40,182 nucleotides of DNA from Halorussus marinus (GTDB lineage Archaea; Halobacteriota; Halobacteria; Halobacteriales; Haladaptataceae), in contig NZ_SBIV01000006.1 of the NCBI RefSeq assembly GCF_004765795.1, positions 248,001 through 288,182 on the forward strand, read 5' to 3'. The position numbers were made by a program, and so were the translations under genes. A model generated the notes under the pieces. That model saw only the letters and a list, made by a program, of their open reading frames with translations. It was not told the DNA's origin and did no database searches. Positions 202 to 30,410 of the stretch are shown piece by piece; positions within the stretch are counted from its first letter, which is position 1, and the number at the start of each line of letters is the position of its first letter.

Positions 202-1365
202 ATGAAGCTCGCAATGATCGGCTTCGGGCAAGCAGGCGGGAAGATCGTGGACAAGTTCGTCGAGTACGACCGCCAGACCGGGAGCGACGTCGTCCGGTCG
301 GCGATCGCGGTCAACACCGCGGAGGCCGACCTCGCGGGGCTCGAGGAGATCCCCGAACGCAACCGCGTACTCATCGGTCAGGCCCGCGTGAAGGGCCACG
401 GCGTCGGCGCCGACAACGAACTCGGCGCGGAGATCGCCGAGGCGGACGCCGGCGAGATACAGGGGGCGATCGACGACGTCCCGGTCCACGAGATCGACGC
501 GTTTCTCGTGGTCGCGGGGCTGGGCGGTGGCACCGGGTCGGGCGGCGCGCCCGTCCTCGCGAACCACCTCAAACGGATCTACACCGAACCCGTCTACGGG
601 CTGGGCGTCCTGCCCGCACAGGACGAGGGCGGCATCTACACCCTGAACGCCGCCCGGTCGTTCAAGACGTTCGTCGACGAAGTCGACAATCTGTTGGTGT
701 TCGACAACGACGCGTGGCGCGAGACCGGCGAGTCGGTCCGGGGCGGCTACGACCGGCTCAACGAGGAGATCGTCCGGCGGTTCGGCGTCCTGTTCGGCGC
801 CGGCGAGGTCGGGCGCGACGACGCGATCGCAGAGAGCGTCGTCGATTCGAGCGAGATCATCAACACGCTCGCCTGCGGCGGCGTCTCGACCATCGGCTAC
901 GCCGCCGAGGAAGTCGCGGCGACCGACGGCGGACTCCTCGGGCGCTTCACCGACGACGAGATCGACGCCACCGAGACCACCAACCGGCTCACCAGCCTCG
1001 TCCGGAAGGCCACGCTCGGTCGGCTCACCCTCCCGTGTAACGTCGAGAGCACCGAGCGCTCGCTGGTGGTCACCAGCGGGCCGCCCGAACACCTCAACCG
1101 GAAGGGCATCGAGCGCGGGCGCAAGTGGCTCGAATCCGAGACCGAGTCGATGGAGGTCCGGGGCGGCGACTACCCCATCCGGGACGCCGGCCGGGTCGGC
1201 GCGGTGGCGTTGCTGTCGGGCGTGAGCGACGTGCCACGGGTGAAAGAGCTTCAGGGCGTCGCGGTCGAGACCCGGGACAACATCGAGTCGATGCGCGAGG
1301 AGAGCGACCGGAACCTCCAGCGACTCGTACACGACGAGGCCGAAGAACTGGAAGCGCTGTTCTGA
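202..1365 (+). CDS. cetZ: CetZ tubulin/FtsZ-superfamily GTPase (CetZ1-like)
   Basis: N-terminal GFGQAGGK, GHGVGAD, tubulin signature GLGGGTGSG, FDNDAW, short amphipathic tail ELEALF; closely resembles haloarchaeal CetZ1 as recalled. Confidence 0.93.
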   Translation: MKLAMIGFGQAGGKIVDKFVEYDRQTGSDVVRSAIAVNTAEADLAGLEEIPERNRVLIGQARVKGHGVGADNELGAEIAEADAGEIQGAIDDVPVHEIDAFLVVAGLGGGTGSGGAPVLANHLKRIYTEPVYGLGVLPAQDEGGIYTLNAARSFKTFVDEVDNLLVFDNDAWRETGESVRGGYDRLNEEIVRRFGVLFGAGEVGRDDAIAESVVDSSEIINTLACGGVSTIGYAAEEVAATDGGLLGRFTDDEIDATETTNRLTSLVRKATLGRLTLPCNVESTERSLVVTSGPPEHLNRKGIERGRKWLESETESMEVRGGDYPIRDAGRVGAVALLSGVSDVPRVKELQGVAVETRDNIESMREESDRNLQRLVHDEAEELEALF

Positions 1366-2141: not shown

Positions 2142-2462
2142 CGTTAGCTGTCTCTCCGGAACTCCGGGTCCGCTCGGTCGCTCCGGCCCGCGTCGATTCG
2201 TCGGGCGACCGTCGGCGTCGGTGCGTAGCGTGCGATGGCCCGATGTCCGGGCGCCGCGAACTAAAGTCGTTGGCTTTCGCGCGCACACTACCGTCGGACT
2301 GACATTTCTGGGATGACGAAATTTTACTACGATCGTTGTATCACGAGGACTGCTTTGAATACGGATAATTTATTAAAATTTAACGTCGGTCTGGCCCACA
2401 TTCTCACGGAGACGATAGGCAAATGTTTATTTATGTTCGATATAAACACCGACTCAAGCTGT

Positions 2463-4172
2463 ATGACTGGAGATGACAACCACGCTTGGCTCGACCGGCG
2501 CGACTACCTGAAGTACGTCGGTGCAACGGGCGTCGGCGGCACGTTAGCCGGCTGTACGAGTGGCGGCGGATCGAACGAGGACGGGGAGACGACCACGTCC
2601 GACGAAGAAACCGAGACCGAAGGGGCGGACGGCGGCGACGGCGGGGACCCGTCGACGTTCGTCGTCGGGATGAGCAGCAAGGCCTCGACGCTCGACGTCC
2701 ACTCCGCGACGCGTCGGCCCGAGAACACGATCGTCTCGGCCATCAACGAGACGCTGTTCCGACTCGACGAGGACACCGAACCGGTCCCGCACCTCGCGAG
2801 CGACTACTCGCGCAACGACGACGCGACCGAGTTCACCTTCCAGCTCGAAGAAGGCGTCACCTTCCACGACGGATCGACCTTCGACGCCGAAATCGCAAAG
2901 TGGAGCTACGAGCGGTTCCTCGAGAACTCGCCGAACTCGTATCTTCTCGGTCCGGTCGACACCATCGAGGCGACCGGCGACTACGAGCTGACGATCACCA
3001 TGGAGGACTCGTACCCGCTTCTCCCGCGGTATCTCACCAACTGGTCCACCGCGTTCGTCTCGAAGGCGGCGGTCGAGGAACACGGCGACGACTACGGACA
3101 GGCCACCGCGGTCGGCACCGGCCCGTATCAGTTCGACACCTGGGAGCGCGGTACCGGGGTCACCGTCACGAAGTTCGAAGAGTACGACTGGGGGCCGGAG
3201 TTCGCCGAGAACCAGGGGCCCGGGAAGGCCGACGCGTTCGAGTTCCGGCTGCTGCCCGAGGCGACGACGCTCCTCCAAGAGCTCACTAACGGCGACGTCC
3301 ACGGTTCGTCGTACGTCACGCTCAGCGACGTCGAACAGGTCGAGAGCTCGAACAACACCGAGCTCCTCCGCAAGGAGTACACGCGACCGGGCTATCTGGC
3401 GATGAACGTCCAGAAGGAGCCGACCGACGACGTCCGGGTCCGCCGGGCGATCAACCACGCGATTCAGAAACAGCCGGTCATCGACGCGGCCCTCGGCGGC
3501 GAGGGGTATCCCATCTGGAGCATCGTCCCGTCGATCGCGGTCAACGGGCTCAGCGAGGACCGCTCGAAGGAGCTCGGCGAGCAGTACGACCCCGAGAAAG
3601 CCCGCTCGCTCCTCGAGGAGGCAGGCTGGACCAACAGCTCCGAAGGCGAAACCCGCTCGAAGAACGGCGAGGACCTGGAGCTCACCTTCTACGCGTTCAC
3701 CATCCCGCGGTACGCACAGATGGGGAAGGTCGTCGCGCCGATGCTCGGCGAGGTCGGCATCAACGCCAACCTCGAAGTGCTCGAAGCCGGCACCCTCTAC
3801 AACAACCTCGAATCGGGCAACCACCACCTGACGACGATGGCGTACGGTGGCAACTGGGCGACCAACGCGCTCGAACCGATCCTGAAGGGCGAGAACACCG
3901 CGACCGAGGGCGGCACGAACTACTCGCTGTGGCAAAACGACGAGTTCGACGAACTCCTCAAGACCGGAAAGACCCACCCCGACGCCGAGAAGCGCGATGA
4001 GGCGATGGTCGACGCTCAGGAACTCGTGCTCGAAGAAGTCCCCGTCGCGCCAATCTGTGCGTTCAACAAGGTGTACGGGTACAAGAGCGACATCGAAGGC
4101 ATCGACAACTGGACCGAACACGAGTGGTGGCCGGACCAGGAGTGGCTGAACCGCCTCGAGTTCGACGCCTGA
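2463..4172 (+). CDS. dppA: Peptide ABC transporter substrate-binding lipoprotein (family 5)
   Basis: Tat motif DRRDYLK plus lipobox LAGC; family 5 motifs (GVTFHDG, GTGPY, DVRVRRAI). Start at ATG 2463, after an AT-rich promoter region. Confidence 0.92.
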   Translation: MTGDDNHAWLDRRDYLKYVGATGVGGTLAGCTSGGGSNEDGETTTSDEETETEGADGGDGGDPSTFVVGMSSKASTLDVHSATRRPENTIVSAINETLFRLDEDTEPVPHLASDYSRNDDATEFTFQLEEGVTFHDGSTFDAEIAKWSYERFLENSPNSYLLGPVDTIEATGDYELTITMEDSYPLLPRYLTNWSTAFVSKAAVEEHGDDYGQATAVGTGPYQFDTWERGTGVTVTKFEEYDWGPEFAENQGPGKADAFEFRLLPEATTLLQELTNGDVHGSSYVTLSDVEQVESSNNTELLRKEYTRPGYLAMNVQKEPTDDVRVRRAINHAIQKQPVIDAALGGEGYPIWSIVPSIAVNGLSEDRSKELGEQYDPEKARSLLEEAGWTNSSEGETRSKNGEDLELTFYAFTIPRYAQMGKVVAPMLGEVGINANLEVLEAGTLYNNLESGNHHLTTMAYGGNWATNALEPILKGENTATEGGTNYSLWQNDEFDELLKTGKTHPDAEKRDEAMVDAQELVLEEVPVAPICAFNKVYGYKSDIEGIDNWTEHEWWPDQEWLNRLEFDA

Positions 4173-4208
4173 GATCAACACCCACCCCGATATCGATACT
4201 TTCCAACC

Positions 4209-5150
4209 GTGTTTCAGTACGTAGTCCGACGGTTACTCGTCATGATCCCCGTTCTGATCGGCGTGACGCTGGTCATCTCGTCGGTCGTCTACCTCTCGCC
4301 GGGGAACCCGGCACAGATAGCGCTCGGTCAGAACGCGAACCCCGAGGCGATCGAGGAACTCGAAGCCGAGATGGGGCTGAACGACCCGCCCCACGTCAGG
4401 TACCTCGACTGGCTTGCCGGCGCCGCGCAGGGCGATCTCGGAACGTCGGTCCGGTCTCAACGCCCCGTCTCGGAGATGATAATGGAGCGGTTACCGGCGA
4501 CCCTAGAGTTAGCGATAGCGTCGATGGCGTTGACGCTCATCATCGCGCTCCCGCTGGGGGTGATAAGCGCGGTCAAGCAGTACACCTGGGTCGACTCCCT
4601 CTCGATGGTGTTCGCCATCTTCTGGATATCGATGCCGTCGTTCTGGCTCGCGCTCATCCTGATCCTGTTGTTCTCGGTCAACTGGAGCATCTTCCCCATC
4701 TCGGGGCGGGCCACCCCGGTGTTCACCGCGACGTGGCTGATGTCGCTCGCGCTCCCGGCGATCGCGACCGGTACCCGGCGGGCGGGACTGCTCACGCGGA
4801 TGACCCGGTCGTCGATGCTGGAGATACTCAACGAGGACTACATCCGCACCGCCCGCGGGAAGGGAATCGGCGACCGCGCGGTCATCTACACCCACGCGAT
4901 GAAAAACGCGATGATACCGATCATCACGCTCATCGGGCTCCAGATCCCGCTCATCTTCTCGGGGGCGGTCATCATCGAGACGGTGTTCGCGTGGCCGGGG
5001 ATGGGGCGGCTCCTCGTAAACGCGGTGTTGAGCCGCGACTACCCCGTGGTCCAGGGGACGGTCCTGGTGTACGCGGTCATCGTCATCGCCGCCAACCTCG
5101 CAGTGGACGTGGCGTACAGCTACTTCGACCCCAGAATCAAGTACGATTAA
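4209..5150 (+). CDS. dppB: Peptide ABC transporter permease
   Basis: PGNPA, GDLGTS, EAA-like loop EDYIRTARGKG, RDYPVVQG. Confidence 0.93.
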   Translation: MFQYVVRRLLVMIPVLIGVTLVISSVVYLSPGNPAQIALGQNANPEAIEELEAEMGLNDPPHVRYLDWLAGAAQGDLGTSVRSQRPVSEMIMERLPATLELAIASMALTLIIALPLGVISAVKQYTWVDSLSMVFAIFWISMPSFWLALILILLFSVNWSIFPISGRATPVFTATWLMSLALPAIATGTRRAGLLTRMTRSSMLEILNEDYIRTARGKGIGDRAVIYTHAMKNAMIPIITLIGLQIPLIFSGAVIIETVFAWPGMGRLLVNAVLSRDYPVVQGTVLVYAVIVIAANLAVDVAYSYFDPRIKYD

Positions 5151-5151
5151 C

Positions 5152-6078
5152 ATGTCAGTAGGACACTCAGACAGCGACGACGACGAGGGCGATGGGACCC
5201 CGAAGGGCGGTCAAGGGTCTCGCGTCGCCACCGGACAGCTCGCCCGCGCGCGGACTGTCCTCCGTCGCGTCATGCAGAATCGCTTCGCGGTCTTCGGGCT
5301 CGTCGTGGTGGTGGCGTTGCTGGTCACCGCGGCGTTCGCCCCGTGGATAGCGCCCTACGAGCCGACCGAACAGAACTACGACGCGCTGAAGGAGCCTCCG
5401 AGCCTCGAACACCCGTTCGGGACCGACACCTACGGCCGGGACGTGTTCTCCCGAGTGGTGTTCGGCTCGCGGTACGCGGTGTTCCTCGGCGTCGTCATCG
5501 TCGGCATCGAGATGCTGATCGGCGTCTCGCTCGGGCTCCTCGCGGGCTACTACGGCGGCTGGACCGAGGCCGGAATCATGCGGCTCGTGGACATCAGCCT
5601 CTCTATCCCGGCGATCGTCCTCGCGCTGGCCATCGCCGGGATGCTCGGGGGTGGTCTGTTTCCGCTGATAGTCGCGGTCAGCCTGGTGGGCTGGCGCGGG
5701 TTCGCCAGGCTGGTCCGGGGCGACGTCAAGAGCGTGATGGAAGAAGAGTACATCGAATCGGCCAACGCCGCCGGGCTCAGCGACTTCCGAGTCATCACGC
5801 GGTACGTCCTGCCGAACGCGGCGTCGAGCATCATCGTCTACGCGACCCTGACCATCCCGACGGTCATCCTGTGGAGCGCGGGACTCTCGTTCCTGGGGAT
5901 GGGCGTCCAGCCCCCGAAGCCCGAGTGGGGCGCGATCCTCGCGGCGGGTCGCGGGGACATCGACTCCGCGTGGTGGATCGCGACGTTCCCGGGGCTGGCG
6001 ATCATGCTCACGGTCATCGGCTTCAACGGGCTCGGCGACGGGCTCAGAGACGCACTCGACCCGAGGCAGGTGAGATAA
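5152..6078 (+). CDS. dppC: Peptide ABC transporter permease
   Basis: HPFGTDTYGRD, EEYIESANAAG, LSFLGMG..PP..EWG, GDGLRDALDPR. Confidence 0.93.
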   Translation: MSVGHSDSDDDEGDGTPKGGQGSRVATGQLARARTVLRRVMQNRFAVFGLVVVVALLVTAAFAPWIAPYEPTEQNYDALKEPPSLEHPFGTDTYGRDVFSRVVFGSRYAVFLGVVIVGIEMLIGVSLGLLAGYYGGWTEAGIMRLVDISLSIPAIVLALAIAGMLGGGLFPLIVAVSLVGWRGFARLVRGDVKSVMEEEYIESANAAGLSDFRVITRYVLPNAASSIIVYATLTIPTVILWSAGLSFLGMGVQPPKPEWGAILAAGRGDIDSAWWIATFPGLAIMLTVIGFNGLGDGLRDALDPRQVR

Positions 6079-6079
6079 C

Positions 6080-7108
6080 GTGACGGACCCACTACTCGAA
6101 ATCGACGACCTGCACGTCCACTTCCACACCGAAGAAGGCACCGTCGAGGCGCTCGACGGCGTCTCGCTGACGGTCGAGCGCGACGAGGTGGTCGGCGTCA
6201 TCGGCGAGAGCGGCTGTGGGAAGAGCGTGACCGCCTTCTCGACGATGGGACTGTTGCAGTCCCCGCCCGCAGAGGTGGTGTCGGGGTCGATCCGGTACGA
6301 CGGCCGCGAGCTCCTCGACCTCTCGGACGACGAACTCGACGGCATCCGGGGCGACGACATCACGATGATCTATCAGGACCCGATGTCGTCGCTCAACCCG
6401 GTGTTGACGATCGGTCACCAGCTGACCGAGCCGCTGTTGGCCCACCGCGACATCTCGAAGGCGGCCGCCCGCCAGAAGGCGATCGAGATGCTGGAGGCCT
6501 GCGGACTGGCCGACGCCGAGCGGCTCATGGACGAGTACCCCGACGCGCTCAGCGGCGGGATGCGCCAGCGGGTGGTCATCGCGATGGCGCTCATCACCGA
6601 GCCGAAGCTCCTCATCGCCGACGAGCCGACGACCGCCCTTGACGTGACGATTCAGGCCCAGATCATGGACCTCCTGCGGGACCTGCGCGAGGAGTTCGAG
6701 ATGAGCGTCCTGATCATCAGCCACGACCTCGCGGTCATCAGCGAGATCGCCGACCGGATGGCGGTGATGTACGCCGGCAACGTCGTCGAGACGTGTTCGA
6801 TGCGCGAGCTGTTCGAGGCCCCGCTCCACCCGTACACGCGGAAACTGGCCGAGAGCATCCCGTCGCTGGAGACGTCGGTCCAACGACTGCCGACGATCGA
6901 AGGGACCGTCCCCGAACTCATCGACCCGCCCACGGGGTGTCGGTTCGCCAGCCGGTGTCCCGACTACATCGGCTCGGAGTGCGACGAGATCGACCCCCAA
7001 CTCGCCGAACCCGAGGGGATCCGGGACCACGAGGTCGCGTGCCACTACTACACCGACGAGAGCGACGCCGAACCGCCGTGGCAGATACAGGGAGTTGAGG
7101 ATCAATGA
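6080..7108 (+). CDS. dppD: Peptide ABC transporter ATP-binding protein
   Basis: Walker [30 protein letters not shown] and a Cys-rich oligopeptide-transporter C-terminus. Confidence 0.95.
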   Translation: MTDPLLEIDDLHVHFHTEEGTVEALDGVSLTVERDEVVGVIGESGCGKSVTAFSTMGLLQSPPAEVVSGSIRYDGRELLDLSDDELDGIRGDDITMIYQDPMSSLNPVLTIGHQLTEPLLAHRDISKAAARQKAIEMLEACGLADAERLMDEYPDALSGGMRQRVVIAMALITEPKLLIADEPTTALDVTIQAQIMDLLRDLREEFEMSVLIISHDLAVISEIADRMAVMYAGNVVETCSMRELFEAPLHPYTRKLAESIPSLETSVQRLPTIEGTVPELIDPPTGCRFASRCPDYIGSECDEIDPQLAEPEGIRDHEVACHYYTDESDAEPPWQIQGVEDQ

Positions 7109-8106
7109 GTCTCCAACGAACTCAGGACGCCGAGAGCACAGACGCGCTCCTCGCGGCCGAGGAGGTCCAGAAGTACTTCCCGATCCGGTCGGGGATCCTG
7201 AAGCGCCACACCGCCGACGTGAAGGCGGTCGACGGCGTGAGCTTCGAGATCCGACGCGGCGAGACGCTCGGGCTGGTCGGCGAGTCGGGCTGTGGGAAGT
7301 CGACGCTCGGCAAGACGATGATGCGGCTACTCGACCCGACCGGCGGCCGGATCTACTTCGACGGCGAGGACATCACCGACGTCTCGCGCAAGCGGCTCCG
7401 CCAGCTCCGCCGGGACATGCAGATCATCTTCCAGGACCCGGGGTCGAGCCTCAACCCCCGGATGAACGTCGCCGACCTCATCACCGAGCCGATGCGGTCG
7501 CTGACCGACTGGGACAAGACGAAGCGACAGAACCGGCTGTACGAGCTCATCGAGGAGGTCGACCTCCAGGAGAACCACCTCACGCGAGCGCCACACGAGT
7601 TCTCGGGCGGCCAGCAACAGCGCATCGCCATCGCGCGCGCGCTCAGCGTGAACCCGAGCCTCATCGTCGCCGACGAGCCGACCAGCGCGCTCGACGTGAG
7701 CGTGCAGGCGAAGATCCTGAACCTGATGGAGGACCTCCAGGAGAAGTACAATCTGACCTATCTGTTCATCTCCCACGATCTCAGCGTCATCAAACACATC
7801 TGCGACCGGGTGGCGGTGATGTACCTCGGCGAACTCGCGGAGGTCGCGCCCGCCGATCGGCTGTTCGAGACCCCCAAACACCCCTACACCCGGGCGCTCC
7901 TCTCGGGCGTTCCGCGGGCGAACGCCGAGCGGATGGACGACCGGATCATCCTCGACGGGAGCGTCCCGAGCCCGGAAGATCCCCCGTCGGGCTGTCGGTT
8001 CCACACCCGGTGTCAGGAGTACATCGGCGACGTCTGTGAGACGTCGGATCCGGAACTCGACGCGGTCGGCGACGGCCACGTCTGTGCGTGTCACCACTAC
8101 GACTGA
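7105..8106 (+). CDS. dppF: Peptide ABC transporter ATP-binding protein
   Basis: [42 protein letters not shown] overlap with the upstream gene. Confidence 0.95.
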
Positions 8107-17552: not shown

Positions 17553-17933
17553 CTAACTACCGAAGGTGAAGACGGTAGCGTTTTGAGCGTTCCCATCGAC
17601 ATTGTAGGCTACCACGGAGTTGGAACTACCACTGCAAGTGATGGTCTGACCGACTTGAGTAGTGTGTTTAGTTGCCCAACCAGAGTCACCGGGACCATCT
17701 ACGGCCGAGCATTTGATTCCAGTCGTACTGGGGCCAAGTGAATTAAGCGTGACTTCGTTGGTGCCACTAGCCGCCGAAACGCCTGCTGAGGCGTTCTGGT
17801 TGACGTTCTCGCCGAGGCCGAGCACGAACGTGCCGATGACGGCGGCCAGAATCACCGTGATGGCGACCATCAGGATGACCCCGATCACCGGGCTCACCGC
17901 GTCGTCGTCCGTGAGTAGTGTTTTGAAGTTCAT
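17553..17933 (-). CDS. pilA: Archaeal type IV pilin, PilA-type
   Basis: Class III signal ([10 protein letters not shown]) with the canonical haloarchaeal H-domain [29 protein letters not shown]; two Cys in the globular part. Confidence 0.93.
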
Positions 17934-19759: not shown

Positions 19760-20029
19760 GTCGCCACACTGGTCCGAGTAGCGGCTTATCTGTTGGCATC
19801 CCGGAGAGGGACGGCGCCTTTCTCCGGGCTCGCCGCCGAGACCGTGCGGGCTGGTAGCAATGGTCGGAAAATGTTAACACTGTAACACCTGTACGATACG
19901 ATCCCCATGATGGACGACCAGCACAGTTGACCCAGCGCCCAGTCAGGGAAGTACGTACCGCGTACATCCGTGGCGGGGCCTCCGAACCCGTTCGCCAGAC
20001 ACGCCGACTACCACCCACTCACCCCGCCA

Positions 20030-20305
20030 ATGAACGAACAACGAGATCCGCACCGATCGACACGAACCGCCCGCCCAGAGTACCGCGCGCCCCGGACGTG
20101 GACCGGCCTCGCCCTGTACGTCGGGTTCGGCGCGCTCGTCCCGCTGGCGCTGTTCGCGCTCGCGCATCCGACGGCCGTCGCGGCCGCGATCGCCGGTCTC
20201 AGCGTCGGCCTGCTCGCCCGACCGCTCGGTCACCGACTGACCCGCCGGTCGGGTCGAGTCGAGCGTCCGACCAACGCCGTCGGACGCGCCGCGTCCGAGG
20301 AGTGA
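20030..20305 (+). CDS. Small membrane protein, 91 aa
   Basis: ATG at 20030; two hydrophobic segments; followed by a T-run (gcttttttc) that could act as a terminator. Confidence 0.65.
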   Translation: MNEQRDPHRSTRTARPEYRAPRTWTGLALYVGFGALVPLALFALAHPTAVAAAIAGLSVGLLARPLGHRLTRRSGRVERPTNAVGRAASEE

Positions 20306-20456: not shown

Positions 20457-22598
20457 GTGATGAACAGTTTGGGAGGTGAGCGCTCCGCGTCTCCGGACGA
20501 GACCGCCGTCGGCACGCTCTCTTTCGAAGTCGACGCGGGCGACTGCGGCGTCACCGTCGTCGACTCGATAGAGCGACACCGCTACTCGGTCGAGACCTCC
20601 CGCCCGGTCGCTCCCACGCCCGTGGACGTCGACGACTTTCTGTTTCCCGCGGATGCGGGTGTCGCGATAACGACCGAGAGCCTCACGCTCCCGACGGTCG
20701 TCCCGGTCTACGTCAGGGATCAGACCGGCGACATGCTCGCGGAGGCCGAACACTTCGCCGACGAGGCCTTCGACGAGGGCGTCTACAGCATCGAACTCAA
20801 CGCCCCGATCAAGCTCTATCTGAACGTGAGCGGTCCGCTCGCGGTTACCTCGGACATGGAACACATGCAGTTCGAGTTCGGCTCGGAGACGGAGGTGTTG
20901 CTCGGCGCGCGCTCGCACCACGAGCATCCGGCCGCGACCGTCACCACGACGGCCGACCCGACCGATATGATGGCGGCGGTCTCGACGTTCGGCTCCGCGC
21001 TCAAGACCACGAGTTGCGAGCGGTCGTATCCGACCCTCCGGGGCCATCCGCCGACGATCGAACTCGGAGACCAACTGGAGATTCCCGACGAGCTGACCGT
21101 CCCCGACACCGGAATCCGGATCGAGATCCCGCCGACGTATCGCGCGGTCTACGTCGCGGCGCCGCTGGCCTACTATCTCGGAGCCACGGTGGTCGAGGGC
21201 GATCGGCCGCGGGTCGTCACCGAGACGGGGTTCGAACACCCCCTCGACACCGAACGGGGCGTGGAAGCCGAGGCCGAACGGCTCCTGAAACAGACGTTCT
21301 TCCTCGACTGTCTGACTCGGACGGAAGGCTACTATCAGGTCGATCTCCACGAGCGGGGCGCGATCGAACCGAGAGTCGATCTCGATTTCGAGCGACTGTA
21401 CGAACAGTCGCCGGCCGAGCAGTTGGAGGCGTATCTCACGGTCCCGTTCTCGGTCGTCGAACCCGAGATCCCCGAGTGGAAGCTGACGTCCCACGTCGAA
21501 CCCGTAGCGACCAGCATCGAAACGCTACCGTTCGTCGTCGAGGATCTGGCCGTCGTTCACACCCCGAAAGAGCGCGAGCCCGCAGACGCGACACAGGAAG
21601 CGGCGGCCGTAGAAGATTTCTTCCGGACGGGCGCGACCGACGAGGCCGCCGAGTTCACCCGGAGCACCGATCGGACGACCCCGACCGACGAGTCCTACGT
21701 CCAACCGGAGTCGGCCGACTCGCTCGAACAAACGTGGGTCGGCGACGGAACGCCCATCGGCGCGAGCAAGGCGACCACCGCGGCGTTCCGCAACCACCTC
21801 AACCGGACGCCGACCGAGGGCGACATCGAGATCACGGTCGTCTGCAACGACCGACAGATGAACGAGGAGCGCGACGCGGTCGACGCCGGCTACGGCTCAC
21901 GCGAAACGCTCCCGTTCGACGTCACCGTCCACCACGATCTGACCACGACCGAACTCCGCGACGTCCTCGCTCGCCAGACCGACTTCCTCCACTACATCGG
22001 CCACATCGACGGCGGCGGCTTCGAGTGTGCCGACGGGAAGTTCGACGCGACGACGCTCGATTCGGTCGGCGTGGACGCGTTCTTGCTGAACGCCTGCCAG
22101 TCGTACGCACAGGGGATGCACCTGCTCGAGGCGGGAAGTATCGCCGGCGTCGTCACCCTGAGCGACGTGATCAACACCGGTGCGGTCCGGGTCGGCCGGA
22201 CGATGGCTCGCCTGCTCAACGCCGGATTTCCGCTTCGGGCGGCGCTCACCATCGCCCGGAACGAGAGCATCGTCGGGGGCAAGTACATCGTGGTCGGCGA
22301 CGGCGGCCTCTCGATCGCACAGGCCGAGAGCGGGACGCCGAACCTCTGTGAGATCGAACGCGACGGCGACGCGTTCACCCTCCGGATGGAGACGTACCCG
22401 ACCGCCCAGACCGCGATGGGGACGCTGATAATCCCTTACATCGAGCAAAACGAGACGCACTTTCTGACGTCGGGGGTCGACGAGGAGTTCTCGATGCGGG
22501 AAGACGAACTGCGTCGATTCCTGAGCCTCGAAGAGGTTCCGATCCGTTTCGACGGGGAACTGCGGTGGAGTACCGACCTCTCGGTCGAGCAGTTGTGA
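20457..22598 (+). CDS. Large protein with C-terminal CHAT/caspase-like (clan CD) protease domain
   Basis: FLHYIGH and FLLNACQS align with CHAT H(F/Y)xGH and LxAC motifs, followed by GVVTLSDV, LLNAGFPLRAAL and YIVVGDG. Start may be ATG 20460. Confidence 0.75.
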   Translation: MMNSLGGERSASPDETAVGTLSFEVDAGDCGVTVVDSIERHRYSVETSRPVAPTPVDVDDFLFPADAGVAITTESLTLPTVVPVYVRDQTGDMLAEAEHFADEAFDEGVYSIELNAPIKLYLNVSGPLAVTSDMEHMQFEFGSETEVLLGARSHHEHPAATVTTTADPTDMMAAVSTFGSALKTTSCERSYPTLRGHPPTIELGDQLEIPDELTVPDTGIRIEIPPTYRAVYVAAPLAYYLGATVVEGDRPRVVTETGFEHPLDTERGVEAEAERLLKQTFFLDCLTRTEGYYQVDLHERGAIEPRVDLDFERLYEQSPAEQLEAYLTVPFSVVEPEIPEWKLTSHVEPVATSIETLPFVVEDLAVVHTPKEREPADATQEAAAVEDFFRTGATDEAAEFTRSTDRTTPTDESYVQPESADSLEQTWVGDGTPIGASKATTAAFRNHLNRTPTEGDIEITVVCNDRQMNEERDAVDAGYGSRETLPFDVTVHHDLTTTELRDVLARQTDFLHYIGHIDGGGFECADGKFDATTLDSVGVDAFLLNACQSYAQGMHLLEAGSIAGVVTLSDVINTGAVRVGRTMARLLNAGFPLRAALTIARNESIVGGKYIVVGDGGLSIAQAESGTPNLCEIERDGDAFTLRMETYPTAQTAMGTLIIPYIEQNETHFLTSGVDEEFSMREDELRRFLSLEEVPIRFDGELRWSTDLSVEQL

Positions 22599-22733
22599 TC
22601 AGGGACCGGCGGTCGAGCCCAGATTCGCGGCCGCCGAGTTGCCCGCTTGTGTCAAAAGTAGACAGATCGTAAAGAGGACGCCGGCCATTCTCGGATTCTG
22701 TGCGATGTAGTCTGCGATGTCTGTTTTGGACAT
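22599..22733 (-). CDS. 44-aa putative secreted peptide precursor (not in ORF track)
   Basis: Manual translation MSKTDIADYIAQNPRMAGVLFTICLLLTQAGNSAAANLGSTAGP; hydrophobic core, SAA/AAA cleavage-like site, AT-rich promoter at 22745-22830. Confidence 0.8.
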   Translation of the reverse strand: MSKTDIADYIAQNPRMAGVLFTICLLLTQAGNSAAANLGSTAGP

Positions 22734-22985
22734 TGCACGACATACTCTTGGATAAAAATATGTGAAATTTTCTAAACAATACTGACAGATAAAATACTGA
22801 CTTTATTATTGTGAATGTTTTATATAAACGAACGAGTTTGAGAGTCATTACATAACACGGTCGGTGGGGTGTAGAACGCTCGTCGGGTGCAATCGCCCGC
22901 TTTTCGAAGCCTATCTTCGCTCTCACCGCGACGAACACGCCGGCACTGCTCGCGGCGTCACACTCACCGTCGAGAGCGCGAACCG

Positions 22986-23387
22986 CTACCCGTCGAAGGT
23001 GTAGACCACTGCGTCTCCGATTCCGTCGCCGAAGGCCACGACGGAGTTCGCGTTCGAACTACAGGAGATCGAATCGCCGACGGTCTCGGTCGCTCCGGGG
23101 CGGTCGCCGTCGTCGTACCGGTCGTTCGACGAGTCCAGATCGTCCCCGGTCTCGTCGGCGTCCGAACACCGAACGCCGTCCGTGTTCGGACCGACCGAGT
23201 CGAGCGTCACCGTCCTGTCTCCCGTCGGGGAGACCCCCGCGGTGGCAGTTTGGTCGACGTCTTGACCGAGTCCGAGCACGAACGTCCCGATGAGCGCGGA
23301 CAGAACCGCGGTGGTGGCGACCAGCAGGACGACGCCGATCACCGGCGAAACGCCGGTCTCGTCTGCGAGTAACTGTTTCGGGTTCAT
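22986..23387 (-). CDS. Second archaeal type IV pilin, paralogue of 17553-17933
   Basis: Start MNPKQLLADETG/VSPVIG at 23387; variant H-domain; globular part aligns with pilin 1 (VTLxSxGPxTxGxxCS, IxCS..NSVVA). Confidence 0.88.
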   Translation of the reverse strand: MNPKQLLADETGVSPVIGVVLLVATTAVLSALIGTFVLGLGQDVDQTATAGVSPTGDRTVTLDSVGPNTDGVRCSDADETGDDLDSSNDRYDDGDRPGATETVGDSISCSSNANSVVAFGDGIGDAVVYTFDG

Positions 23388-23723: not shown

Positions 23724-26700
23724 ATGTCTGCCCCCGGGCCATCCGAGGGAATCTACGCCGAGACACTGGCGGTGTTCGGCGAGTCGACACACACACCAGA
23801 ACCCCTCAGTACCACCGAGGTCGCCGACGCCCTCGACGTTCCGCGGCGGACCGCGTACAAACGACTCGATACCCTCGCCGAGCGTGGCGACGTCGCCACC
23901 AAGAAGGTCGGCGCGAGTGCCCGCGTCTGGTGGCGCCCTGACGCGTCTCGGCCGACCGCCCCCTCCGAGACCACTGCTCCGAGGGTCGAGTCGATGATCG
24001 ACGTCCTCGACGGCGCCGGGGTCGGCGTGTTCGTCCTCGACGCGGACTTCGAGGTCGCGCGGATCAACGACGCCACCGAGCGGTACTTCGGACTCGACCG
24101 CGAGGACGTCGTCGGTCGCGACAAACGCGGGCTCGTCGAGGATTCCATCGCGGACCGCGTCGACGACGCGACCGCGTTCGCCGACACCGTTCTCGCGACC
24201 TACGACGACAACACGGACACCGAGTGCTTCGAGTGTCGGGTCACCCCGGGCGCGGACCGCGAGCCCCGGTGGCTCGAACACTGGAGCAAGCCCATCGACG
24301 CCGGCCGGTACGCGGGCGGGCGCATCGAACTCTACTACGACATCACCGACCAGAAACACTCCGAGCAGGCGCTCGCTCAGGAGCGGAGTCTCACCGACCG
24401 CCTGCTGGAGACCGCGCCGATTCGCCTCGCCATCTTCCGGCCCGACGGGTCGGTCGAGCGGATGAACTCCCGGGTCCGTCGGGAACTCGGCCTCGAGGAC
24501 GCGGACCTCTCGGCGTTCGAGCTCGGCGACTTCGACGTGTACGATCCGGACGGCGATTCGTTGCCCGTCGAGCGCCACCCCGTCTCGCGCGTGCTCGAAA
24601 CCGGCGAGCCGGTCCGAGGGGAGGTGATCCAACACGAGACCCCGGACGGCGACCGGCGGTGGGTGTCGCTCAACGCCGCCCCGCTGTTCGACGCCGACGG
24701 CGACCTCGAACGCGTCGTGGTCACCGGCAAGGACATCACGGCGCTAAAACGGACCGAGCGAGCGCTCGCCCGGCAACGCGATCAGCTCCAGCTCGAACTC
24801 GACGACGTGTTCACGCGCATCACCGACGGCATGCTCGCGGTCGACCTCGACTGGACGGTCACCTACGTCAACGACCACGCCAAGCACCTCCTCGGCCGTC
24901 CCGACGCAGACCTCCGCGGGAAGAATCTCTGGGAGGCGTTCCCGGAACAGGTCGGCTCCGACGCGTGGGAGCGGTATCACGAGGCGATCGAGACACAGCG
25001 ACCGATCACGTTCGAGACCCGGTCGGCGGAGGTCGGCGGGTGGGTCCAAGCCCGCGCGTACCCCTCCGAGACCGGGCTCTCGATCTACTTCCGGGACATC
25101 ACCGAGCGCAAGGAGCGAGAGGCCCGACTCGAGGAGGCCCGGAATCGCTACCAGACCCTCGTCGAGCACTTCCCGAACGGGGCGGTCGCGCTCGTCGACG
25201 CCGACGAAGACGGGAGACTCCGGTACGTCACCGTCGGCGGCACCGCGATCGAATCGGCGGGGGTCGACCTCGAGGACCTCGAGGGCCAACCGCTCCGCGA
25301 GCGCCTGCCGCCCGAGATCGTCGACGAAATCGCCCCGCACTACGAGGCCGCGCTCGACGGCGAGCAACGCGTCTTTCAGTCGGCGTTCGGCGACCGCGTC
25401 CATCAGTTCCGGATGGTCCCGGTCCACACCGACGACGGCGAGGTGTTCGCCGCGCTCGGCATGTCCCAGGACATCACCGAGCTGAAAGCCCGCGAACGCG
25501 AACTCGAACGCTACGAGACCATCGTCGAAACGGTCGACGACGGCATCTACGCCCTCGACGACGACCTCGAGTTAACGATGGTGAACTCCGCGCTCGCCGA
25601 ACTGATCGGGGACGACCGCGAGGACCTCCTCGGCACGTCGGCCCGAACCATCACCGACGACGTCTGGGACGGGGTGGCCCAACTGGAGGCCGAGATGAGA
25701 ACCGGGGACCGCTCGTCGGCGAGCGTCGAGTGCACGCTCGAAGCCGCGGACGGCGATCGCATCCCGGTGGAGGCGACGTGGGTGCTTCGGTCGACCGACG
25801 ACGCCGACGAACGCGTCGGTACCGTCCGGGACGTCAGCGACCGGAAAGCCCGCGAGCGAGAGCTTCAGAACCGCGTCCAGCAACAGCGGGCGCTCGCGGA
25901 GTTCTCCCAGCACGCGCTCGAAGATCGGTCGCTCGACGAACTGTTCGACGAGGCGGTCGAACGCGTCGCCGACGTCCTCGATCACGACTACTGCAAGGTG
26001 CTGGAACTGCTCCCCGAGGCCGACGAACTCCGGTTGCGAAACGGCGTCGGGTGGCGCGAGGGCATCGTCGGGGAGGCGACGGTCGCGGACGACCGGTCCT
26101 CACAGGCCGGGTACACCCTCATCGCGGAGGAACCGGTGGTGGTCGAGGACCTCGCGAGCGAAGACCGATTCAGCGGCCCGGCGCTCCTGACCGACCACGA
26201 CGTTCAGGGAGGGATCAGCACCGTGGTCGGGTCCTACGACGAGCCGTGGGGGATTCTGGGAACCCACGACACCGACCGCCAGTCGTACGCCGACCACGAC
26301 GTCCAGTTCGTCCAGAGCATGGCGAACATCCTGACGAGCGCCATTCGGCGCTACGAGCGCGAACAACAGCTCGAACGCTACGAGACCATCATCGAGACGG
26401 CCGACGACGGCGTCTTCGCGCTCGACGCCGACGAGCGGTTCGTCCTGGTCAACGAGGCGTTCTGCGAGCTGACGGGGTACGACCGACAGGAACTGCTTGG
26501 CCGCCACGCGTCGGTGGTCCACAGCGAGCGAGTCAGCAGGGAGGCCGCCGAGCTGAGCGAGCAGGTCGCCGACGGTCTCGGGAGCGTGACGGTGGAGGTG
26601 GAGTTCCCGACCAGAGACGGCGGAACGATCCCGGTCGAGAGTCGGTTCGGCCCGTACCGGTACGACACCGACACGGACGCTCGGGCCGGCATCGTCCGGG

Positions 26701-27356
26701 ACATCTCCGAGCGCAAAGAGCGCGAACAGCGACTCCGGGCCCAAAACGAGCGACTCGAAAGCTTCGCGAGCATGCTCGCCCACGAACTCCGGAACCCGGT
26801 CACCATCGGCCAGATCTACACCCAGCAGTTGTCGACGGACCCAGACCCCACGGCCGTGGAGTACGTCACCGAGGCGTTCGACCGGATCGAGGATATGATC
26901 GACGTGATGCTCGTGTTGACGCGGGGCCGCGACGCCGTCAGCGGCGACGCGACGATCCATCTCGAAGCGGTCGCCCGGGAGGCGTGGGCCGAAGCCCAGA
27001 CCCGGGACGCGACCGTCGACGTGGCGCTCGAAAAGACGATCGAGGCCGACGAGACGTACATCAGTCACCTGTTTCGGAACCTGTTCGAGAACGCCGTCGA
27101 GCACGGTGGGGCCGACGTTACCGTCACGGTCGGCGATCTCCCGGACGGGTTCTACGTCGCCGACGACGGCGAGGGAATCCCGGCCGGGGAGCGCGAGACG
27201 GTGTTCGAGGTGGGGTACACAACCGCCTCCGACACCGGCGGCACCGGGTTGGGGCTGGCGTTCGTCGCCGAGTTGGCCGACGTCTACGAGTGGACGGTGA
27301 CGGTGACCGAGAGCCCGACGGGGGGCGCCAGGTTCGAGTTCCGGGACGACTCGTGA
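23724..27356 (+). CDS. Cytoplasmic sensor histidine kinase: wHTH, about six PAS domains, GAF, HisKA-HATPase
   Basis: N-terminal STTEVADALDVPRRTAYKRL..RVWW HTH; repeated DIT/DVS/DIS PAC ends; GAF; H-box HELRNP, NLFENA, DDGEGI, GTGLGL; no transmembrane segment. Confidence 0.92.
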   Translation: MSAPGPSEGIYAETLAVFGESTHTPEPLSTTEVADALDVPRRTAYKRLDTLAERGDVATKKVGASARVWWRPDASRPTAPSETTAPRVESMIDVLDGAGVGVFVLDADFEVARINDATERYFGLDREDVVGRDKRGLVEDSIADRVDDATAFADTVLATYDDNTDTECFECRVTPGADREPRWLEHWSKPIDAGRYAGGRIELYYDITDQKHSEQALAQERSLTDRLLETAPIRLAIFRPDGSVERMNSRVRRELGLEDADLSAFELGDFDVYDPDGDSLPVERHPVSRVLETGEPVRGEVIQHETPDGDRRWVSLNAAPLFDADGDLERVVVTGKDITALKRTERALARQRDQLQLELDDVFTRITDGMLAVDLDWTVTYVNDHAKHLLGRPDADLRGKNLWEAFPEQVGSDAWERYHEAIETQRPITFETRSAEVGGWVQARAYPSETGLSIYFRDITERKEREARLEEARNRYQTLVEHFPNGAVALVDADEDGRLRYVTVGGTAIESAGVDLEDLEGQPLRERLPPEIVDEIAPHYEAALDGEQRVFQSAFGDRVHQFRMVPVHTDDGEVFAALGMSQDITELKARERELERYETIVETVDDGIYALDDDLELTMVNSALAELIGDDREDLLGTSARTITDDVWDGVAQLEAEMRTGDRSSASVECTLEAADGDRIPVEATWVLRSTDDADERVGTVRDVSDRKARERELQNRVQQQRALAEFSQHALEDRSLDELFDEAVERVADVLDHDYCKVLELLPEADELRLRNGVGWREGIVGEATVADDRSSQAGYTLIAEEPVVVEDLASEDRFSGPALLTDHDVQGGISTVVGSYDEPWGILGTHDTDRQSYADHDVQFVQSMANILTSAIRRYEREQQLERYETIIETADDGVFALDADERFVLVNEAFCELTGYDRQELLGRHASVVHSERVSREAAELSEQVADGLGSVTVEVEFPTRDGGTIPVESRFGPYRYDTDTDARAGIVRDISERKEREQRLRAQNERLESFASMLAHELRNPVTIGQIYTQQLSTDPDPTAVEYVTEAFDRIEDMIDVMLVLTRGRDAVSGDATIHLEAVAREAWAEAQTRDATVDVALEKTIEADETYISHLFRNLFENAVEHGGADVTVTVGDLPDGFYVADDGEGIPAGERETVFEVGYTTASDTGGTGLGLAFVAELADVYEWTVTVTESPTGGARFEFRDDS

Positions 27357-29285: not shown

Positions 29286-30410
29286 TCACTCAAGATCGTC
29301 GAGGTAGCTACGGCGCGATTCCATCCGCCGGAGCAGCTCCGGGTGATCGTAGTGCTGCCGAATCGTCTCCGGCGTCGCGTTCACCTTCTCAGCCAGCACC
29401 TCCGGCGGCCACCCGCAGTCGCGATGCCACGTAATCGAACCCGTCCGGATCCTGTGCGGCGACCGCGCCGACGGGCACCGCTGCTCGCGACCGTGGTCGA
29501 GCGCCTCGCACTCGTCCGGGTCGCGGTTGTGGGGGCAGGTCCCGTACCGACACGGCTGAGTCACGATGTAAAACCGCCGCCGAATCCCGCCCTTCGACAT
29601 CCGTCCGCCGCCCTTCTCCGAAGCAAACAGCGGACGACGACCGTATTCGTCCTCGACGCTCGGTCGATTGAACTCGATGAAATCTCGCAAGATCCGGCCG
29701 AGCTCGTCGGTCAGCGACACCGGGCGCTCACCCTCGCTCTGGTTCTTCAACGGCGTATCCGACTCCGGGCGATGCCGGAAGAACACGAACGGGACCGAAA
29801 CCTCGTCGGTCAGTCCGTCACCATCACCCAGATCGGCCTCCTTGAACAGGCCCTCCTCTTCGAGATTCTCCTCGTGGGCGAGCCGTTCGATGTCGCTCTC
29901 TTCCAGATAGCAGTCCCTGACGTCCAGCGCGTGGAGTGCGCCGAGGCGACAGCCCGTCTCCCACGCCAGCGCGAACAGCGCGTGGTCGACGCTCGCCCGC
30001 TCGAACCGTTCGAGCTTCTCCTGGATGGTCTTCGCGCGGCTCGTCGTGAGCTTCTCACGGTTCGCGCGCTCGGCCTTCGTGAGCGCCGGCACGTCGAGCG
30101 CCCGCGAGAGACCGTCCTCGACCGCGTCGATGTCCTCGCAGAAGTCGAGGAACAGCCGGAGCGTCCCGAGCTGGTTGTTCAGCGTCGACGAATTCAGCTC
30201 TTCACCGCGGCGGTGCGAGTCGAACCGGTAGAGGGTGCGACCGTCGAGCGAGTTCAGGTTCTCGATGCCCTCCTGTTCACACCATCGAACGAACTGATCC
30301 ATCCGATAGCGGTAACTCTGAACCGTCTCCCGGGCCTTCTCGGACTTCTGGCGTTCGATCCACATCTCCATCGCCTCGCGCGGCGCGAGCGGCTGGAGGT
30401 CCTCACTCAT
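29286..30410 (-). CDS. SNJ2-like tyrosine integrase
   Basis: LQPLAPREA N-terminus; catalytic-type GCRLG, PLKN, SPHRIR, HYD; Cys cluster QPC..CPH..C..CP typical of the haloarchaeal SNJ2-type family. Confidence 0.92.
   Translation of the reverse strand: MSEDLQPLAPREAMEMWIERQKSEKARETVQSYRYRMDQFVRWCEQEGIENLNSLDGRTLYRFDSHRRGEELNSSTLNNQLGTLRLFLDFCEDIDAVEDGLSRALDVPALTKAERANREKLTTSRAKTIQEKLERFERASVDHALFALAWETGCRLGALHALDVRDCYLEESDIERLAHEENLEEEGLFKEADLGDGDGLTDEVSVPFVFFRHRPESDTPLKNQSEGERPVSLTDELGRILRDFIEFNRPSVEDEYGRRPLFASEKGGGRMSKGGIRRRFYIVTQPCRYGTCPHNRDPDECEALDHGREQRCPSARSPHRIRTGSITWHRDCGWPPEVLAEKVNATPETIRQHYDHPELLRRMESRRSYLDDLE

Follow-up and report, generated by a model that had tools for sequence, protein, structure and literature searches.

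Caspase-like protease and DUF7503 precursor peptide encoded tail to tail in haloarchaea: a candidate peptide-signalling module

A protease gene and a peptide gene in convergent pairs

In a 40,182-nucleotide stretch of the Halorussus marinus genome (RefSeq assembly GCF_004765795.1, contig NZ_SBIV01000006.1, positions 248,001 to 288,182; hereafter the window, in whose numbering all positions are given), a gene for a CHAT/separase-like protein of clan CD on the forward strand (20457..22598; 713 residues from a GTG start, 712 from an ATG at 20460) and a gene for a 44-residue DUF7503 precursor peptide on the reverse strand (22599..22733) meet tail to tail, with their stop codons touching (TGA/TCA at 22596-22601). 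The pair is a real and widespread module that is undescribed in the searchable literature. Because the variable tail of the peptide changes in step with the last domain of the protease, this tail is likely an exported, kin-specific signal; judging from sequence comparisons it is very probably the cognate ligand of that C-terminal domain, and we assign a probability of roughly 0.55 to a full export, reimport and switch model, that is, to peptide signalling of the Rap-Phr type with a protease as the non-homologous receptor. An earlier reading of the sequence alone had pointed to the same two open reading frames (ORFs; 20457-22598 forward, 22599-22733 reverse), with the same 44-residue sequence and abutting stops. 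That observation is confirmed; its interpretation is partly supported, with the ligand-sensing region moved to the C-terminal β-domain. A literature search that covered few subscription papers returned no description of the pair, none of DUF7503 and nothing on a haloarchaeal CHAT or caspase domain with a peptide.

The strict linkage that the sequence-only reading had proposed to test is borne out across haloarchaea, nearly always in the convergent arrangement. In a sample of 70 Halobacteria genomes, DUF7503 occurs in 55 and the protease in 58. Among the matches listed, of which 141 of the 150 protease rows were used after nine N-terminal halves of split matches had been dropped, all 71 DUF7503 matches lie at most 2 kb from a protease homologue, 70 of them convergently, with a median gap of 27 nt between peptide and protease matches, and all 59 protease matches of at least 500 bits are paired. 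Three further genus samples gave 66 paired peptides out of 66 (one duplicate and two previously used loci dropped), and the own genus and its relatives gave 27/27 and 20/23, with up to 8 peptide matches per genome that differ in their cores. The H. marinus genome itself encodes four protease paralogues, three of which have a DUF7503 gene convergent on them; beside the fourth lies a divergent 44-residue ORF that likewise ends in Gly-Pro, the typical end of these peptides. Many copies of the pair reside on plasmids. We collected about 1,555 peptide clusters and 898 protease clusters at 50% identity, which suggests a large natural library of pairs.

Since Gly-Pro counts among peptides found with a model are circular, Gly-Pro-ending frames were also sought by position, with 0.2-0.8 expected per group. 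Convergent frames of this kind were found at 11 of 25 paralogues of a second class, class B (0.8 expected; the pair of the window is of class A), at three of four f19 loci (0.17 expected), which belong to the same phylum outside the order, and at 6/6 plasmid loci; there were none at eight dyad-less paralogues or at 11 f23 loci. Searched against Pfam, three peptides from f19 and class B gave no match (3/3). In the phylum sample outside the order, the protease occurs in 15 genomes, all f19 (4/4) or f23 (11/12), and the f23 matches end at profile positions 617-638, short of the C-terminal domain.

The f23 loci (L142-L152) encode shorter homologues whose matches include neither the N- nor the C-terminal β-domain; they have no Gly-Pro peptide and occupy a conserved site near dnaG and, presumably, an rRNA operon (as we take it from reverse translation). 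Most keep His and Cys, L152 not. The dyad-less paralogues without a peptide at L098-L102 and L104, some in tandem, are possible pseudo-protease regulators. At L153:3033-7319 the peptide gene and the 3' part of the protease gene are repeated locally with a different core, and L058 (G015:C1:486534-486796) and L066 show two like peptide genes in tandem or two tandem proteases with one peptide. L065 and L067 carry dyad-bearing proteases without a peptide; upstream of these lies a divergent tbsP-like gene, and a frame of 296 codons, with an end that we take to be pirin-like, converges on them.

The 44-residue ORF, which had been described as unannotated, belongs to Pfam family PF24335 (DUF7503; 70.8 bits against a cut-off of 27, E = 7e-20), and its exact sequence is present in NCBI nr. 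The family extends to peptides missed by the Pfam model, and no function or partner is assigned to it in the literature searched. The conserved leader (22629..22733, reverse strand) comprises an amphipathic helix, an N-P-R motif, a 13-residue hydrophobic stretch (22650-22688) and a predicted signal-peptidase site, S-A-A (22629-22637). It is followed by the predicted mature core ANLGSTAGP (22602..22628, reverse strand), which is variable and uncharged, holds the co-varying Asn at -8 and Gly at -6, and ends in the conserved Gly-Pro. The release of eight to nine residues proposed earlier stands as a prediction, with a putative cut after S33-A34-A35 and a nine-residue product. Class A peptides share the same layout: an amphipathic start, H/N-P-R, about 13 hydrophobic residues, Q-A-G, A/V-x-A, seven variable residues and Gly-Pro. 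This end is present in 48 of 53 distinct peptides, in which every Gly and Pro codon is used for it; the remaining five end precisely two residues earlier, without it. Synonymous codon use rules out a conserved DNA element in place of a peptide. That such ORFs are translated is supported by HVO_1270 of Haloferax volcanii, a homologue by sequence, which is reported as leaderless and translated (Ribo-seq translation efficiency 22, positive by mass spectrometry, FLAG-validated; PMC10117724).

Core statistics were taken from the best 120 of 1,555 homologues, selected by profile. In these we counted 115 different last-nine sequences, an Ala at -10 within an A/V-x-A pattern in 120/120, charged residues at 0.5% of the last eight positions, and a distance from leader to end that, counted from the Pro, is fixed at 31 residues in 106/120. 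Asn occupies -8 in 66/120, so that legumain-like cleavage after Asn was rejected as a general rule. Cores are rich in Ser, Thr and Gly, some contain Cys, and no P1 residue is conserved ahead of Gly-Pro. A conserved leader with a variable core is found, as in peptides that are ribosomally synthesised and post-translationally modified (RiPPs). As for Sec export, the 13-residue hydrophobic stretch and A-x-A are present, yet the n-region is neutral, and the class-B peptides of group f6 have no hydrophobic stretch.

An AlphaFold2 model of the large protein, built from 84 sequences (pLDDT 84.5, pTM 0.83), has four parts, all encoded on the forward strand: an N-terminal β-sandwich (residues 19-155; 20511..20921), a middle α/β region (residues ~161-448, disordered at 387-409; 20937..21800), a caspase-fold catalytic domain (residues 453-624; 21813..22328) with His516 at 22002-22004 and Cys547 at 22095-22097, and a hypervariable C-terminal β-domain (residues 629-713; 22341..22595), which co-varies with the peptide core. 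The best Foldseek matches are separase (E = 2e-8), gingipain (7e-7) and SAVED-CHAT (8e-7); by VIA, separase reaches Z 15.9 (rmsd 4.0, 238 aligned), SAVED-CHAT 15.8 (3.0, 167), legumain 10.9 and OaAEP1 10.1, and DdvA and Csx29 are among the other best structural matches. The middle region, which holds an invariant ERSYPTLRGHPP block, can be aligned in part to separase, DdvA and Csx29, namely to their pseudo-protease halves. The sequence-only reading had placed both motifs of a clan CD dyad, FLHYIGH near 21985 and NACQS near 22090; they start at 21984 and 22089. Neither His516 nor Cys547 varies among 84 close homologues or among 76 catalytic domains, distant ones included, the rows of the latter set having been chosen beforehand for their GH motif. 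A profile of these 76 domains matches SAVED-CHAT 8tl0 (E = 2.9e-5) in an alignment that keeps His and Cys in register, and the model has a caspase/haemoglobinase fold with the putative dyad at the ends of core strands, all of which argues for the proposed clan CD fold and dyad.

The protein stays below the Pfam CHAT cut-off of 24 bits (PF12770; 14.8 bits for the whole protein, E = 0.019, and 19.1 for the domain alone), and 28 of the 76 catalytic domains match CHAT at E ≤ 0.01; NCBIfam gave no match, and a sequence search of solved structures with a profile of the whole protein gave none either. Some sources name homologues as CHAT or caspase family proteins, and the closest named relatives are from Halorussus, at 74-75% identity. 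Folded alone, the N-terminal domain, which lies outside the matches of the f23 homologues, has no clear fold relative (no Foldseek match at E ≤ 0.001), its best VIA matches being galactose-mutarotase-like supersandwiches (Z at most 7.8). In the Atlas, residues 19-370 match unnamed archaeal clusters only and residues 622-713 nothing; the C-terminal β-domain has no Pfam match either. In agreement with the earlier reading that the protein has no signal peptide, it contains no strong hydrophobic stretch (maximum Kyte-Doolittle value over 19 residues, 1.33), and we predict a cytoplasmic receptor-protease. From its alignment into the region past the gingipain catalytic domain and from topology, we infer that the C-terminal domain sits away from the active site.

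Co-variation of the peptide core with the C-terminal domain

Co-variation of the tail with the N-terminal region of the large protein had been proposed as a test; over the residues covered (~230-713), the part that tracks the tail is the C-terminal β-domain (~629-713) and not the N-terminal region. In a first window scan of residues ~240-713 over 29 independent close pairs, the correlation with the core peaked at residues 659-673 (rho 0.70, permutation p 0.002), with controls of 0.11 for the leader and 0.21 for synonymous sites, but 0.43-0.49 for the latter just upstream (619-650). Windows beside the catalytic His, at 0.38-0.54 in this first set, were discarded after they did not replicate (p 0.29-0.36). 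A pre-specified repeat for window 659-673 in 31 new pairs failed (rho -0.01, p 0.50; synonymous control up to 0.43), which speaks against the association. This repeat took the whole C-terminal half as clock and for pairing. Divergence in the repeat set is 0.22-0.41 in the C-terminal domain versus 0.03-0.12 in the catalytic domain, so that most of the divergence falls in the C-terminal domain; the test may have been blunt for this reason, as a whole-region clock would erase the signal. When pairs and clock are drawn from residues ~419-613 alone, a choice made post hoc, residues 645-673 track the core with rho 0.71 (n=30) and 0.87 (n=31 new pairs), the leader controls being 0.43 and 0.19, and the rest of the C-terminal domain likewise tracks the core in both sets.

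At the level of single residues, peptide position -8 and protease residue 694 changed jointly 23 times in 61 pairs (27 and 25 changes, respectively), with a -log10 p of 9.9 against a permutation 95th percentile of 5.4 (0/300 permutations); the next pair of positions reaches 4.8, within the null. Over all pairs, Asn at -8 goes with Val or Ile at 694 in 47 of 52 cases and Ala with Leu, Met or Phe in 21 listed cases. For -6 and residue 659, the 22 loci of genus g3 show G-I 10 times, S-R 6, T-K 3, Y-M 2 and T-S once, a mapping free of conflict save for Thr, which occurs with Lys or Ser. The window's own pair fits both rules, with Asn-Val at -8/694 and Gly-Ile at -6/659; Ile659 (22431-22433) and Val694 (22536-22538) are candidate contact residues. 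Left-out cases fit the -8 rule as well: f19 with A-F in 3/3, and the peptides without Gly-Pro in 5/5 when numbered as though it were present. The co-variation of residues 645-673 with the core and of -8 with 694 suggests the ligand-receptor relation that had been proposed.

Domain and core appear to have been exchanged together as one cassette. Where cores differ at 3 or more places (13 pairs), synonymous divergence is 0.61 in the C-terminal domain, 0.26 in the catalytic domain and 0.11 in the leader; with like cores the values are 0.32, 0.25 and 0.21. The swapping of binding domain and core as a unit is the likely reason for the convergent, tail-to-tail layout.

The same exchange opens a reading without any functional tie, in which a small membrane peptide travels with the protease gene and the co-variation is hitchhiking in a recombining stretch. 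The failed pre-specified test, the raised synonymous divergence in that very stretch, and the expression of HVO_1270 beside a pseudogene in H. volcanii (see below) would fit it. We nevertheless consider it very unlikely: the pairing survives duplications and plasmid moves and reaches another class, one column stands far above the rest (9.9 versus 4.8 for the next) with the same residue rule in left-out lineages, and the peptide is missing where the dyad or the C-terminal domain is missing.

A signalling model and its alternatives

In the signalling model, the precursor would be exported by Sec and cut after Ala35 to give a kin-specific signal of about nine residues, and the mature peptide would be taken up by a Dpp/Opp ABC transporter. 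A candidate importer is the Dpp/Opp-type peptide operon at 2313-8106 (SBP_bac_5, permease and an oligo_HPY-bearing ATPase), which lies some 12 kb upstream of the pair; in the whole genome, 10 family-5 peptide-binding proteins score above cut-off. The new N-terminal end of the tail would then bind the C-terminal domain of the cytoplasmic CHAT protease, where position -8 would pack against residue 694, and -6 against residue 659. Since the catalytic domain keeps 86-94% identity during the turnover of domain and core, the variable core would be an allosteric rather than an active-site ligand. It may switch the protease on rather than off, activation being somewhat favoured over inhibition by analogy with CHAT proteases that ligands activate. 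The output could be cleavage of a regulator, for which a co-transcribed, inactive KaiC-like DUF7504 protein is the best candidate. Gly-Pro, which is not required in five peptides, may protect the peptide end or be trimmed, and a cassette of ~300 bp (binding domain plus core) between two conserved flanks would allow new ligand-receptor pairs to be swapped by recombination.

This model has its closest parallel in the RRNPP(A) systems of Bacillota (Rap-Phr, NprR-NprX, PlcR-PapR, AimR-AimP, Rgg-SHP), which also have a small propeptide beside a cytoplasmic partner, the last 4-10 residues as the signal (predicted here), numerous paralogous pairs in one genome that differ in their cores, orphans of either partner and plasmid copies. 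Unlike them, the archaeal pair has a clan CD protease domain, a β-domain as candidate sensor, convergent genes and a C-terminal Gly-Pro. Against the published description of RRNPP systems, which lists, in its accessible text, a propeptide of 10-100 residues, secretion by Sec (or PptAB), a receptor of 250-500 residues, peptide-binding TPRs and adjacent genes (PMC10075063), the propeptide of 44 residues and the directly adjacent, convergent genes agree, and the receptor of 713 residues and the lack of detectable TPRs do not. No TPR family was found in Pfam or NCBIfam, and the structural model is β and α/β, without a helical repeat. With SAVED-CHAT, Csx29/TPR-CHAT, DdvA and separase the protein shares a caspase fold and a His-Cys dyad after a pseudo-protease-like region; these proteases are activated by a ligand or partner. 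It differs from them in scoring below the Pfam CHAT cut-off (14.8-19.1 bits versus 24), in having no SAVED, TPR or CRISPR context, in its own β-domains at the N and C termini, and in a gene-encoded peptide partner. A single hypervariable stretch of ligand and sensor between conserved flanks is also known from the pherotype cassettes comQXP' of Bacillus and agrBDC' of Staphylococcus, which rely on membrane histidine kinases together with a dedicated modifying enzyme, all in a single operon, whereas here two convergent genes and a cytoplasmic protease are involved.

Recurrent neighbours and data from H. volcanii place the pair in a regulatory context. Of 55 paired proteases, 25 have DUF7504 (PF24336/arCOG02452, inactive KaiC-like) encoded immediately upstream and nine more have it just past the peptide (own profile and Pfam), and HalOD1, PAS and receiver genes recur near the pairs. 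DUF7504-type KaiC-like domains have been proposed as haloarchaeal signalling parts, and arCOG02452, to which HVO_1268 belongs (PMC13464002), is described as a KaiC-like partner of HalOD1 in the accessible text of PMC5847659. The RNA of HVO_1270 increases about six-fold between low density and stationary phase (95/172/593), HVO_1268 staying flat, and is down two-fold in early csmR mutant cells (PMC13286277, data as available). HVO_1269, convergent with HVO_1270, is annotated as a pseudogene of 2,127 nt and is transcribed (PMC13286277); from its position and length it would be the protease partner. TbsP is reported to bind the HVO_1270 promoter and to be needed for adhesion and normal shape (PMC11023807). 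Identity of the peptide with the disk-forming signal of H. volcanii was examined and is highly improbable: the available descriptions make that signal at most 3 kDa and autoclave-stable, yet proteinase K-resistant, HVO_1269 carries a pseudogene annotation, and HVO_1270 shows no significant change in the qarA tables (padj 0.11, 0.46).

A number of observations weigh against the signalling model. The positive co-variation depends on a clock that was changed after the failed repeat, and cassette exchange confounds the residue-level claims because domain and core adjoin on the DNA and hitchhike. Class-B pairs obey the -8 rule only partly; volume compensation is suggestive at -8/694 (rho -0.67; sign test 14:6, p 0.12, not significant) and absent at -6/659 (11:15). 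Some genes stand alone: three of 23 peptides in the own genus and its relatives have no protease within ~3 kb, and 14 of 25 class-B proteases, as well as 7 of 8 other proteases with the dyad, have no Gly-Pro ORF. Conservation of the leader exceeds that of the protease (0.56 versus 0.43; 0.84 versus 0.63), whereas the core is much less conserved, and the n-region has no net positive charge, which is unusual for a plain Sec signal. Nine class-B peptides of group f6, with an end like K-R-V-S-T-Y-G-G-P and a start 38-61 codons upstream, have no hydrophobic stretch, and since they lack a hydrophobic leader altogether, export would be dispensable in them. No DUF7504 gene adjoins the pair in the window, HVO_1269 is annotated as a pseudogene though HVO_1270 is well expressed, and C-terminally FLAG-tagged HVO_1270 was detected in cell extracts (PMC10117724, accessible part).

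Several of these points would suit a cell-autonomous control, in which the peptide does not diffuse as a signal but stays in the membrane or cytoplasm as a cognate inhibitor of securin or antitoxin type, whose tail holds the protease off, and the cassette serves self/non-self recognition, for instance in cell fusion or plasmid entry. Core and C-terminal domain would be expected to co-vary equally, the f6 peptides are leaderless, the leader of the others is unusually conserved, tagged HVO_1270 was in cell extracts (PMC10117724) and many copies lie on plasmids. We regard it as rather unlikely, in view of the invariant Ala at -10 and the A/V-x-A pattern (120/120 in the best 120 of 1,555), a binding register that is counted from the predicted cut even in peptides without Gly-Pro, and the density-dependent expression of HVO_1270 reported in PMC13286277; moreover, the many intact proteases without a peptide are hard to reconcile with an obligatory inhibitor.

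Alternatively, the protease could process the precursor in a RiPP-like maturation, recognising leader or core, removing the leader or Gly-Pro and perhaps cyclising the core like legumain-type ligases, with the class-B YcaO modifying the Ser/Thr-rich core. Such a maturase would account for the conserved leader, the fixed distance from leader to end (106/120 in the best 120 of 1,555) and cores rich in Ser, Thr and Gly with some Cys, and the fold matches legumain and OaAEP1 (Z 10.9, 10.1). A class-B pair is also located between glyA and tbsP-ycaO, the haloazolisin locus, for whose YcaO the available text of PMC9953058 reports no convincing precursor. However, a leader-guided enzyme needs no one-to-one protease with a co-varying domain, there is no conserved P1 ahead of Gly-Pro and five peptides lack it, class A has no recurring transporter or tailoring gene beside it, and YcaO is reported in all haloarchaea (PMC9953058), also where the peptide is missing. 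Maturation of this kind is, in our judgement, unlikely.

The signalling model can be extended, at slightly less than even odds, to a first archaeal peptide-pheromone system, with an exported Gly-Pro-ended oligopeptide, a caspase-like receptor-protease with a new β-domain, hundreds of pherotypes arising by recombination of the ligand-sensor cassette, an age beyond that of Halobacteria, a connection to KaiC-like/HalOD1/TbsP lifestyle control, and use as orthogonal peptide-switchable proteases. Archaeal cell-cell signals are described as chemically undefined, and the disk-forming signal of H. volcanii as unidentified (PMC13464002, PMC12240190; accessible parts). If true, the model would amount to peptide messaging of a kind so far undescribed in archaea, would bring a gene-encoded peptide among the ligands that gate CHAT proteases and peptide signalling onto a receptor related neither to RRNPP nor to histidine kinases, and would explain the convergent 3' ends as a swappable specificity cassette. 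The module offers defined 8-9-mers, a receptor domain, predicted contacts and natural non-cognate controls in the same genome; under the inhibitor or maturase readings, too, it would be an undescribed protease-peptide system.

Promoter and neighbouring genes

The AT-rich promoter region claimed for the small ORF (22734..22880, reverse strand) is present, with a GC fraction of 0.34 at 22701-22800 and a BRE-like AGAAAA at 22768-22773; an A-rich BRE-like motif at -40..-35 is common to 101 homologous promoters. The TbsP motif is not enriched in these 101 promoters (17 versus 11.8 expected with at most 2 mismatches) and recurs, at -67, in four g3 loci only; the best match in the window's promoter has 2 mismatches and is not above chance.

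Two stand-alone type IV pilin genes (17553-17933 and 22986-23387) and an HTH-PAS-GAF histidine kinase gene (23724-27356) are present in the window as the sequence-only reading had noted, but the pilin context is not conserved: with flanks of 1.5-7 kb, it is present in 1/245 loci, the window's own. The pilin link was therefore rejected, which leaves the control of adhesion or biofilm suggested from it unsupported. A 111-residue hydrophobic ORF without a family lies directly upstream of the protease (19970-20305); neither it nor pilins or kinase recur beside homologues as far as tested. The ORF at 29286-30410 we take, from its motifs, to encode a tyrosine integrase, which suggests a mobile element downstream.

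Beside class A pairs we found no recurring transporter or tailoring gene; beside class B, YcaO is two genes away. In contrast to the haloazolisin locus with its class-B paralogue pair (PMC4603692, PMC9953058), the class-A pair of the window has no YcaO nearby, and the accessible text of these two papers makes no mention of the protease or the peptides. The class-B insertion (G000:C8:52628-57000; L070-L097) has its peptide gene divergent from tbsP, and the f6 peptides, rich in Ser and Thr, are candidate substrates of YcaO, whose substrate is disputed. The orphan DUF7503 genes lie at L157:3189-3335, L162:3256-3399 and L156:2903-3049, two of them tail to tail with another ORF, presumably a methylthiotransferase of MiaB/MtaB type.

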